NCBI RefSeq assembly: GCF_053078305.1
Contig: NZ_CP166879.1
Reading direction: 5' to 3' (one strand)
DNA: 64,000 bases
The notes below the pieces were generated by a model that saw only the letters and a list, made by a program, of their open reading frames with translations, made no database searches and was not told the DNA's origin. Numbering within the stretch: position 1 is the stretch's first letter; the number at the start of each line of letters is the position of its first letter. Position numbers and translations under genes: made by a program. This document shows, one piece after another, positions 15,760 through 16,448 of the stretch.

Positions 15760-16176
15760 TTAAACCATCACCAGCGATAACTCTTTGCCAAGCGCCTTTG
15801 CCGCGAGCTGGACGGCGTCGATTTTTGTCGCATGATGCAAGTTAAATAGGCGAGTAATCTCCTGTTTAGGTTTGCCAATTCGCCTGGCTAACTCTTGCTG
15901 AGTGATTTCTGACTGTAAAAAAGCATTTAACAGCAATACCTTAGAGGCGACGCTCAAAGGTACTTCAATAAAGTGATCATGACTATTTAATGGCGAAGGT
16001 AACGGGATAAGCTCGTTATCTTCAAAATAAAAATCAAATGCGGTCAGTAAAGCATCTTTTGCCGCTTCCATCGCTTCAGCGACAGTTTCGCCCTGGGTCA
16101 ACGCTTCAGGGATATCCACAAAAGAAACCATATAACCGCCTTCCGGCGCGGGTGTAAGAGTGACGGGATAACGCAT
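15760..16176 (-). CDS. hicB: HicB antitoxin (type II TA)
   Basis: ORF 15760..16197 trimmed to MRYPVTLTPAPEGGY; C-terminal DNA-binding region; directly downstream of hicA. Confidence 0.85.
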   Translation of the reverse strand: MRYPVTLTPAPEGGYMVSFVDIPEALTQGETVAEAMEAAKDALLTAFDFYFEDNELIPLPSPLNSHDHFIEVPLSVASKVLLLNAFLQSEITQQELARRIGKPKQEITRLFNLHHATKIDAVQLAAKALGKELSLVMV

Positions 16177-16221
16177 AATTTCGACTGTCTCTCGCATGTC
16201 ATTAACCTTTTTAATTGGCGA

Positions 16222-16398
16222 TTAACTCAAACCGAGTTGTTTCAGGATTGCTTTACGCAATGGTTCTTTAATCTCATCGCAGGGGTGACGCGGCATGACA
16301 CTGCGCATCCCATGAAACCTGAGTTTCAAATGGTTGCTGCCATTCGCTACATCGACGCCCTGAGATTCGAGCCAACGTCTGAACTCGCTTTGTTTCAC
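16222..16398 (-). CDS. hicA: HicA mRNA-interferase toxin (type II TA), GTG start
   Basis: Missed by ORF track (58 aa); hand translation of minus strand gives VKQSEFRRWLESQGVDVANGSNHLKLRFHGMRSVMPRHPCDEIKEPLRKAILKQLGLS; SD GGGAGG 5 nt upstream of GTG. Confidence 0.85.
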   Translation of the reverse strand: MKQSEFRRWLESQGVDVANGSNHLKLRFHGMRSVMPRHPCDEIKEPLRKAILKQLGLS

Positions 16399-16430
16399 AT
16401 CGCCTCCCTGCCGCTGAGTATATCAACAAA

Positions 16431-16448
16431 GTAAACATTTGTGTTTAC
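16431..16448. promoter_or_regulatory. Palindrome in hicAB promoter region (candidate operator)
   Basis: Perfect 7-bp inverted repeat GTAAACA-tttg-TGTTTAC about 35-50 bp upstream of hicA start; TATACT -10-like hexamer nearby on minus strand. Confidence 0.3.

Follow-up and report, generated by a model that had tools for sequence, protein, structure and literature searches.

The locus lies within a stretch of 64,000 nucleotides, referred to below as the window, and has the gene order rlhA-yncJ <> hicA-hicB-ydcR, with the same flanks as in E. coli K-12; its features are collected in Table 1. It is a toxin-first operon, hicA being directly upstream of hicB on the same strand with a 45-nt gap, and the arrangement is that of E. 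coli K-12 MG1655 (b4532/b1438). A 1.3-kb query over the locus matched 5,416 of the 5,426 complete E. coli genomes with which it was compared, some at 100% identity, and thousands of these genomes carry an identical or near-identical chromosomal hicAB in which hicA has been annotated by pipelines. In a genome that is 100% identical at the locus, PGAP starts hicA at the same GTG and hicB at the inner ATG at 16176. The preliminary description of this DNA had recognised hicAB with a GTG-initiated toxin, and the complete DNA identity to annotated E. coli chromosomes, together with the Pfam and PDB matches given below, bears it out; its further statement that hicA could be recovered only by hand translation does not hold: a mechanical list of open reading frames finds the gene, and PGAP and RefSeq annotate it from the same GTG, K-12 included.

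Table 1. Features of the hicAB locus (positions are those of the window; promoter elements are predictions).
Feature	Position	Strand	Description
hicB	15760..16176	minus	138 aa per PGAP; antitoxin and transcriptional repressor
hicB open frame	15760..16197	minus	from upstream in-frame ATG at 16197; 145 aa
hicA	16222..16398	minus	GTG start, 58 aa; type II toxin (mRNA interferase)
hicA Shine-Dalgarno, AGGGAGG	16403..16409	minus	4 nt from the GTG
P2 transcription start zone	16409..16411	minus	predicted from position of -10; -13 to -11 from the GTG, 5' edge of hicA Shine-Dalgarno
P2 extended -10, TGaTATACT	16417..16425	minus	predicted by sequence reading; -27 to -19 from the GTG
P1 candidate -10, TACTTT	16428..16433	minus	putative; overlaps promoter-proximal palindrome arm
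Palindrome, GTAAACA-N4-TGTTTAC	16431..16448	none	18 bp; probable HicB operator (hicO)
CRP-S-like asymmetric site	16451..16472	minus	TGCGT-aatttg-CTCGA on plus strand; exact 22-mer putative
yncJ	16620-16850	divergent from hicA	DUF2554
ydcR			flanking gene on hicB side; GntR/aminotransferase fusion

HicA matches the Pfam profile HicA_toxin (PF07927) over residues 5-57 at 29.4 bits, against a cutoff of 27, and PDB 6HPB chain A over its full length. The catalytic residue of E. coli HicA, identified as His23 in a review, is present in the translation (...NGSNH23LKL...), and expression of the K-12 protein leads to mRNA cleavage and growth arrest according to the literature. HicA of this strain is identical to that of K-12 at 57 of 58 positions, the sole difference being R31M. 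At residue 31 (codon 16306-16308) each of the 11 aligned orthologs has K or R where this strain has M, and the substitution may weaken the toxin. The translation start is well conserved: the strong Shine-Dalgarno that had been proposed for hicA is there as AGGGAGG, its GGAGG is kept in nearly all orthologs, and GTG-AAA-CAA begins the gene in 14 of the 14 orthologous loci recovered. An ATG-TGA start-stop pair (16395-16400) overlaps the hicA GTG (gcgATGTGAaac); it is found in the Escherichia loci and not in the other genera examined.

HicB is 100% identical to K-12 HicB and matches PDB 6HPB_B/6HPC chain B over its full length (290.8 bits, 138/138 residues). It consists of an N-terminal HicB-like domain (partial RNase H) plus a C-terminal Xre-type helix-turn-helix (HTH): Pfam PF15919 (HicB_lk_antitox) is matched at 32.8 bits (cutoff 27) and the C-terminus matches HTH_3 at 31.4 bits (cutoff 23). 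Within the HTH_3 match, the motif KQE(I/V)TR(L/I)F is conserved across all orthologs compared and is taken to be the recognition helix. The NCBIfam profiles gave no match for HicA, HicB or YncJ. Seven codons ahead of the ATG at 16176, a further in-frame ATG (16197) has the better Shine-Dalgarno (AAGG; window 16177-16217). Escherichia, Citrobacter and Raoultella keep this upstream ATG in frame (MRETVEI, MRESQII, MRDFTEI, MRDFEKI), and the relatives in Pantoea, Serratia and Brenneria lack it; where hicB really starts in E. coli may deserve a look, with the upstream ATG as a candidate.

Ahead of hicA lies a perfect GTAAACA/TGTTTAC inverted repeat, as the preliminary description had it, with arms at 16431-16437 and 16442-16448 and a 4-nt spacer. 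The palindrome is 32 nt upstream of the hicA GTG, spanning -50 to -33 relative to it, and matches to its pattern occur only once in the 64-kb window; its counterpart in K-12 is at 1509236-1509253. The 11 bp between the centres of its half-sites is a spacing typical of HTH dimers. Within the 221-nt intergenic region no other perfect inverted repeat has arms of 7 nt or longer separated by 10 nt or less. To gauge chance occurrence we counted perfect 7+7 inverted repeats with spacers of 0-10 in dinucleotide shuffles: an equal or better repeat appears in 12% of shuffled 221-nt intergenic regions and in 1% when the 60 nt adjoining the start codon are shuffled, and such repeats occur at about 0.9 per kb in the window. 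On its own, then, the palindrome is statistically unremarkable.

What makes it clearly non-random is conservation at the same offset in orthologous loci. A scan for HicB relatives, one genome per species, yielded 18 loci from Escherichia species, Citrobacter, a Raoultella MAG, Superficieibacter, Pantoea, Serratia and Brenneria, of which the 14 with hicA were used to count operators. GTAAnCA-N4-TGnTTAC is present in 13 of these 14 at -50 +/-1, except that in one of the 13 it stands at -39, owing to a deletion of 11 nt downstream of the site; for any one locus, a site would fall at that offset by chance with a probability below 1e-3. Only the Brenneria roseae ortholog lacks the site, and its HicA has Tyr instead of the catalytic His23. 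In the alignment of orthologs the conserved columns are the arms, the Shine-Dalgarno and the start codon, while spacer and flanks drift, and the same holds on a smaller scale among eleven E. coli loci, K-12 included, where the arms do not vary and the spacer reads ctaa, attaa or caaa. The unchanged half-site is what the conserved putative recognition helix of HicB would fit. The genomic contexts are unrelated: ydcR again lies downstream in Citrobacter and Raoultella, and the loci of the other genera have neither neighbour in common with E. coli. A second inverted repeat, CTTTGTT/AACAAAG (16388-16394 / 16425-16431), which brackets the Shine-Dalgarno and start codon, was set aside because the orthologs do not conserve it and both predicted transcription starts fall 3' of its upstream arm.

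Regulation of hicAB in K-12 has been described, and reviews of Turnbull & Gerdes (2017) summarise it as follows. The operon has two promoters, of which P2 is repressed by HicB at an inverted repeat, hicO; P2 lies a very short way from the start codon, and its transcript, cut short at the hicA ribosome-binding site, yields HicB only; and excess HicA displaces HicB from the operator. One review adds that HicB binds a 147-bp upstream fragment and that this binding is relieved by excess HicA. P1, in the same summaries, has a CRP-S site, depends on Sxy and is not repressed by HicB. Going by these accounts, K-12 publications already contain, in substance, both HicB binding to the upstream fragment and transcription-start mapping.

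The sequence between the palindrome and hicA fits this description of P2. A predicted extended -10, TGaTATACT, begins 5 nt past the palindrome on the hicA strand; its TATACT was also predicted as the hicAB -10 from genomic SELEX (Shimada 2014). TATAAT or TATACT occurs 8 nt after the palindrome in four of five loci from Citrobacter, Raoultella and E. whittamii, and the fourth Citrobacter locus, in which hicA is frameshifted, has TATCCT at the P2 -10 position. Placing the start 6-8 nt past the -10 would put it at the 5' edge of the hicA Shine-Dalgarno (Table 1), so the predicted geometry agrees with the reviews, both in the nearness of the start to the start codon and in the truncation of the transcript at the hicA ribosome-binding site. 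The palindrome would then cover approximately -38 to -21 of P2. A promoter consensus scan of 16150-16700 called no hicA promoter; it missed P2 because the -35 is weak and an extended -10 is not scored there. Nor was there a match for the K-12 coordinates around hicA in the Cappable-seq and SMRT-Cappable-seq supplements, as far as the possibly incomplete text that was searched extends.

P1 is more difficult to place. Upstream of the palindrome, at 16454-16469, stands a candidate for its CRP-S site, TGCGT-N6-CTCGA (TGTGT in K-12), with one good and one degenerate half; CRP-S sites are described in the literature as having one conserved and one degenerate half-site. The candidate P1 -10, TACTTT, corresponds in position to the TACTAT of a TTGAC(A/G)-17-TACTAT promoter in Pantoea, Serratia and Superficieibacter, and the CRP-S-like site would be centred at about -41.5 from a start predicted at about 16420-16421. 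With its -10 inside the proximal arm, P1 is predicted to suffer interference from HicB, contrary to the reviews: either this placement or the reviews' statement that P1 is not HicB-repressed would be off.

Taken as a whole, the region is the chromosomal hicAB type II toxin-antitoxin operon of E. coli, and the palindrome is very probably the HicB operator, hicO, through which P2 is repressed. The proposal that the palindrome is a HicB operator is supported by its conservation with hicAB across seven genera and by its match, on the reviews' account, to the published hicO in P2. That it is the published hicO is very probable, and there is a small though real chance that the published coordinates differ from those of this palindrome; the operator sequence had no literal match in the literature text searched, a body of text to which the primary hicAB papers do not belong.

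The scheme that would follow is this. HicA, encoded from the GTG, would act as a small ribosome-independent mRNA interferase, which HicB would neutralise through its N-terminal domain; dimers of HicB would bind DNA by way of the C-terminal Xre-type HTH. A HicB dimer on the palindrome would cover the -35/spacer region of P2. The P2 transcript, starting as predicted at the edge of the hicA Shine-Dalgarno, would consequently yield HicB with little or no HicA. When HicA is in surplus it would pull HicB off the operator, and because it is excess HicA that strips HicB away, derepression would selectively replenish the antitoxin. P1, dependent on CRP and Sxy, would make the full hicA-hicB message from the CRP-S-like site and the -10 near 16428-16433.

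Other readings of the palindrome have to be set against this one. The preliminary description suggested that it could couple the hicAB and yncJ promoters, as a shared bidirectional element at which bound HicB would also regulate a yncJ-directed promoter. In favour of such an element, the arms read TAAACA on each strand, and genomic SELEX (Shimada 2014) assigns TAAACA-18-TGTAAT to yncJ and TAAACA-19-TATACT to hicAB under one RNA polymerase peak; these assignments are purely predicted, however, and the predicted yncJ -10 is here CGTAAT, not TGTAAT. The repeat is indeed upstream of the divergent yncJ, as had been pointed out, though trivially so: it is 171 nt from the yncJ ATG and outside the block of only about 95 nt that yncJ orthologs share upstream with E. 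coli. The yncJ-rlhA pair is conserved in Salmonella, Citrobacter, Enterobacter and C. koseri, where its upstream neighbours differ, and yncJ orthologs there with no adjacent hicAB have no palindrome; conversely, the palindrome persists at hicAB orthologs, among them those of Citrobacter and Raoultella, for which a search of about 975 bp upstream turned up no yncJ. Moreover, the "-35" arm on the yncJ side is lost, and yncJ left intact, in a deletion allele that about 1,200 of the 5,416 E. coli genomes are estimated to carry, and the literature groups yncJ with the Cpx response. An element that travels with hicAB without yncJ, and is absent at yncJ without hicAB, is very unlikely to serve both promoters, and the coupling is not upheld. 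We regard it as equally improbable that the palindrome is a chance AT-rich repeat with no protein partner, its arms being weak -35-like hexamers. The shuffling results and the frequency of such repeats in the window would allow this, and the arms were read as -35 elements by Shimada (2014); against it stand the conservation of both arms in seven genera while spacer and flanks drift, the second copy in 21-bp phase in five loci (see below), the loss of the site along with inactivation of the toxin in B. roseae, and the published HicB binding to the upstream fragment and inverted-repeat operator, as the reviews report them.

There is still less reason to assign the palindrome to another regulator, as a CpxR box for yncJ or as part of a CRP site, and we give this only a very slim chance. 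Each arm does contain GTAAA, the CpxR half-site. The CpxR box consensus is GTAAA-N5-GTAAA, and a test for such a box failed here: the two GTAAA form an inverted rather than a direct repeat, and their spacing is not 5 nt. The site also segregates with hicAB and not with yncJ, and a better CpxR-like direct repeat, TTTGC-N5-TTTGC, is found at 16537-16551, in the yncJ-proximal conserved block. In the literature yncJ is a member of the CpxR iModulon, but ChIP-exo does not place it among the direct CpxR targets. Least credible is an action of the palindrome in RNA, as a leader hairpin or terminator: folding of the hicA strand does draw the hairpin, but its folding energy is no better than that of shuffles (z = -0.48), the stem is AT-rich and without a U-tract, there is no Rfam match at the palindrome, and the palindrome is upstream of both predicted transcription starts.

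Two observations concern the yncJ side of the locus. The conserved block upstream of yncJ, 16525-16619, in which the repeat just mentioned reads TTTGC-GCTAA-TTTGC with CpxR-box geometry on the opposite strand, also has AATAAT at 16559-16564, and is a candidate Cpx-dependent yncJ promoter. Between yncJ and rlhA there is a REP-like palindromic element (16854-16890), which Rfam naRNA4 matches below threshold, at 28.8 bits against a gathering score of 59.5.

The HicB operator of the preferred reading is not always single. In five loci, from Superficieibacter, two Pantoea, Serratia and Brenneria salicis (L010, L015, L016, L017, L018, about 900-960), a second copy of the site lies 21 bp upstream (start to start), in helical phase with the first. 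The right arm of the distal copy supplies TTGAC(A/G), and TACTAT follows 17 nt on in the right arm of the proximal copy; such loci thus have one strong promoter, TTGAC(A/G)-17-TACTAT, whose -35 and -10 are covered by the two 18-bp sites. Escherichia and Citrobacter have the proximal copy only. The comparison suggests that the tandem-site arrangement gave rise to the pair of promoters seen in E. coli. How this came about can be put forward tentatively, as a possibility that we hold to be slightly doubtful: the Escherichia operator could be what is left of an ancestral tandem pair, namely its promoter-proximal half, the distal site and the -35 having given way to a CRP-S-type site (P1), while a new extended -10 arose 8 bp downstream (P2). 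Were it so, the remaining operator would overlap the P1 -10, and HicB may gate P1 more than the reviews imply. As a separate observation, Pantoea, Serratia, Brenneria and Superficieibacter have a GC-rich hairpin (AACCAGCCC-tycg-GGGCTGGTT) between hicA and hicB (L010, L015-L019, about 1155-1180), absent from the E. coli locus, which could be a terminator, attenuator or processing site uncoupling toxin and antitoxin expression.

These layouts have counterparts in known systems. The nearest is K-12 hicAB itself, with P1 at its CRP-S/Sxy site and P2 at hicO, whose palindrome arms, Shine-Dalgarno, GTG and -10 elements are the same as here. hicA3B3 of Yersinia pestis and hicAB of Burkholderia pseudomallei also have the toxin-first order, and in these too palindromic operators within the promoter let the antitoxin repress on its own, and its binding becomes less stable when HicA is in excess. 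Operators BS1 and BS2 of Y. pestis flank one promoter, which resembles the two-operator layout of the Pantoea, Serratia, Brenneria and Superficieibacter relatives of E. coli hicAB; in B. pseudomallei the palindromic operator overlaps the -10. The HicB proteins of these two systems have a ribbon-helix-helix domain and other operator sequences, whereas E. coli HicB has an Xre-type HTH, and Escherichia hicAB differs from both in its single operator and second promoter. Outside the family, mqsRA, rnlAB and toxTA of H. influenzae are reverse-order type II systems in which, as in hicAB, an extra promoter provides antitoxin without toxin, and toxTA further shares with hicAB a CRP-S promoter and an antitoxin-repressed downstream promoter. 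Their protein families are unrelated to those of hicAB, and their antitoxin promoter is inside the toxin gene, whereas that of hicAB is at the toxin ribosome-binding site.

What sets the allele found here apart from those of K-12 and the ten other E. coli loci is HicA R31M together with three promoter-region SNPs: T to A at 16439 in the palindrome spacer (ctaa to caaa), TGTGT to TGCGT at 16456 in the CRP half-site, which gives a more CRP-S-like core, and G to T at 16477, further upstream.

Larger changes to the cassette are common in E. coli. About 1,200 of the 5,416 matching genomes cover less than 80% of the locus query; eight matches sampled at 66% coverage all consisted of the same 856-bp match, and one further match covered only 6%. 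The resulting deletion-allele frequency of about 22% is an estimate from query coverage, with one deletion allele examined in sequence. This allele, in E. coli strain 1105, has a 445-bp deletion (window 16005-16441) that takes hicA, the N-terminus of HicB and one palindrome arm, fusing mid-hicB to GTTTAC and leaving yncJ intact; the breakpoint is inside the palindrome (...GGCGAAG/TTTACC..., the stroke marking the junction), with 1-2 nt of microhomology. A different lesion, in E. coli F637, is a 22-bp deletion in hicA (window about 16257-16278) that shifts the frame, so that PGAP calls a pseudogene, and leaves hicB and the operator intact; it was found in 6 of 40 matches taken at even spacing along the genome ranking, hence in perhaps one genome in seven. 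Elsewhere hicA is frameshifted in Escherichia sp. E1V33 and in Citrobacter Cu233, has a stop at codon 9 together with an 11-nt deletion removing the P2 -10 in locus L008, has lost its operator along with the H23Y change in B. roseae, and has been removed with the whole promoter by a different deletion in E. albertii. These five decays appear to be independent of each other.

For the biology of hicAB the system is thus a characterised one, its genes, structures, promoters and operator being already published, and what was found at this locus is correct but ordinary: beyond a confirmed annotation it has little import, since hicAB is a textbook reverse-order toxin-antitoxin module whose antitoxin-only dual-promoter feedback has been published. 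The gain is a modest, comparative one, namely an operator consensus, GTAAnCA-N4-TGnTTAC, that travels with the cassette, and a measure of how frequently the cassette has decayed in natural E. coli.
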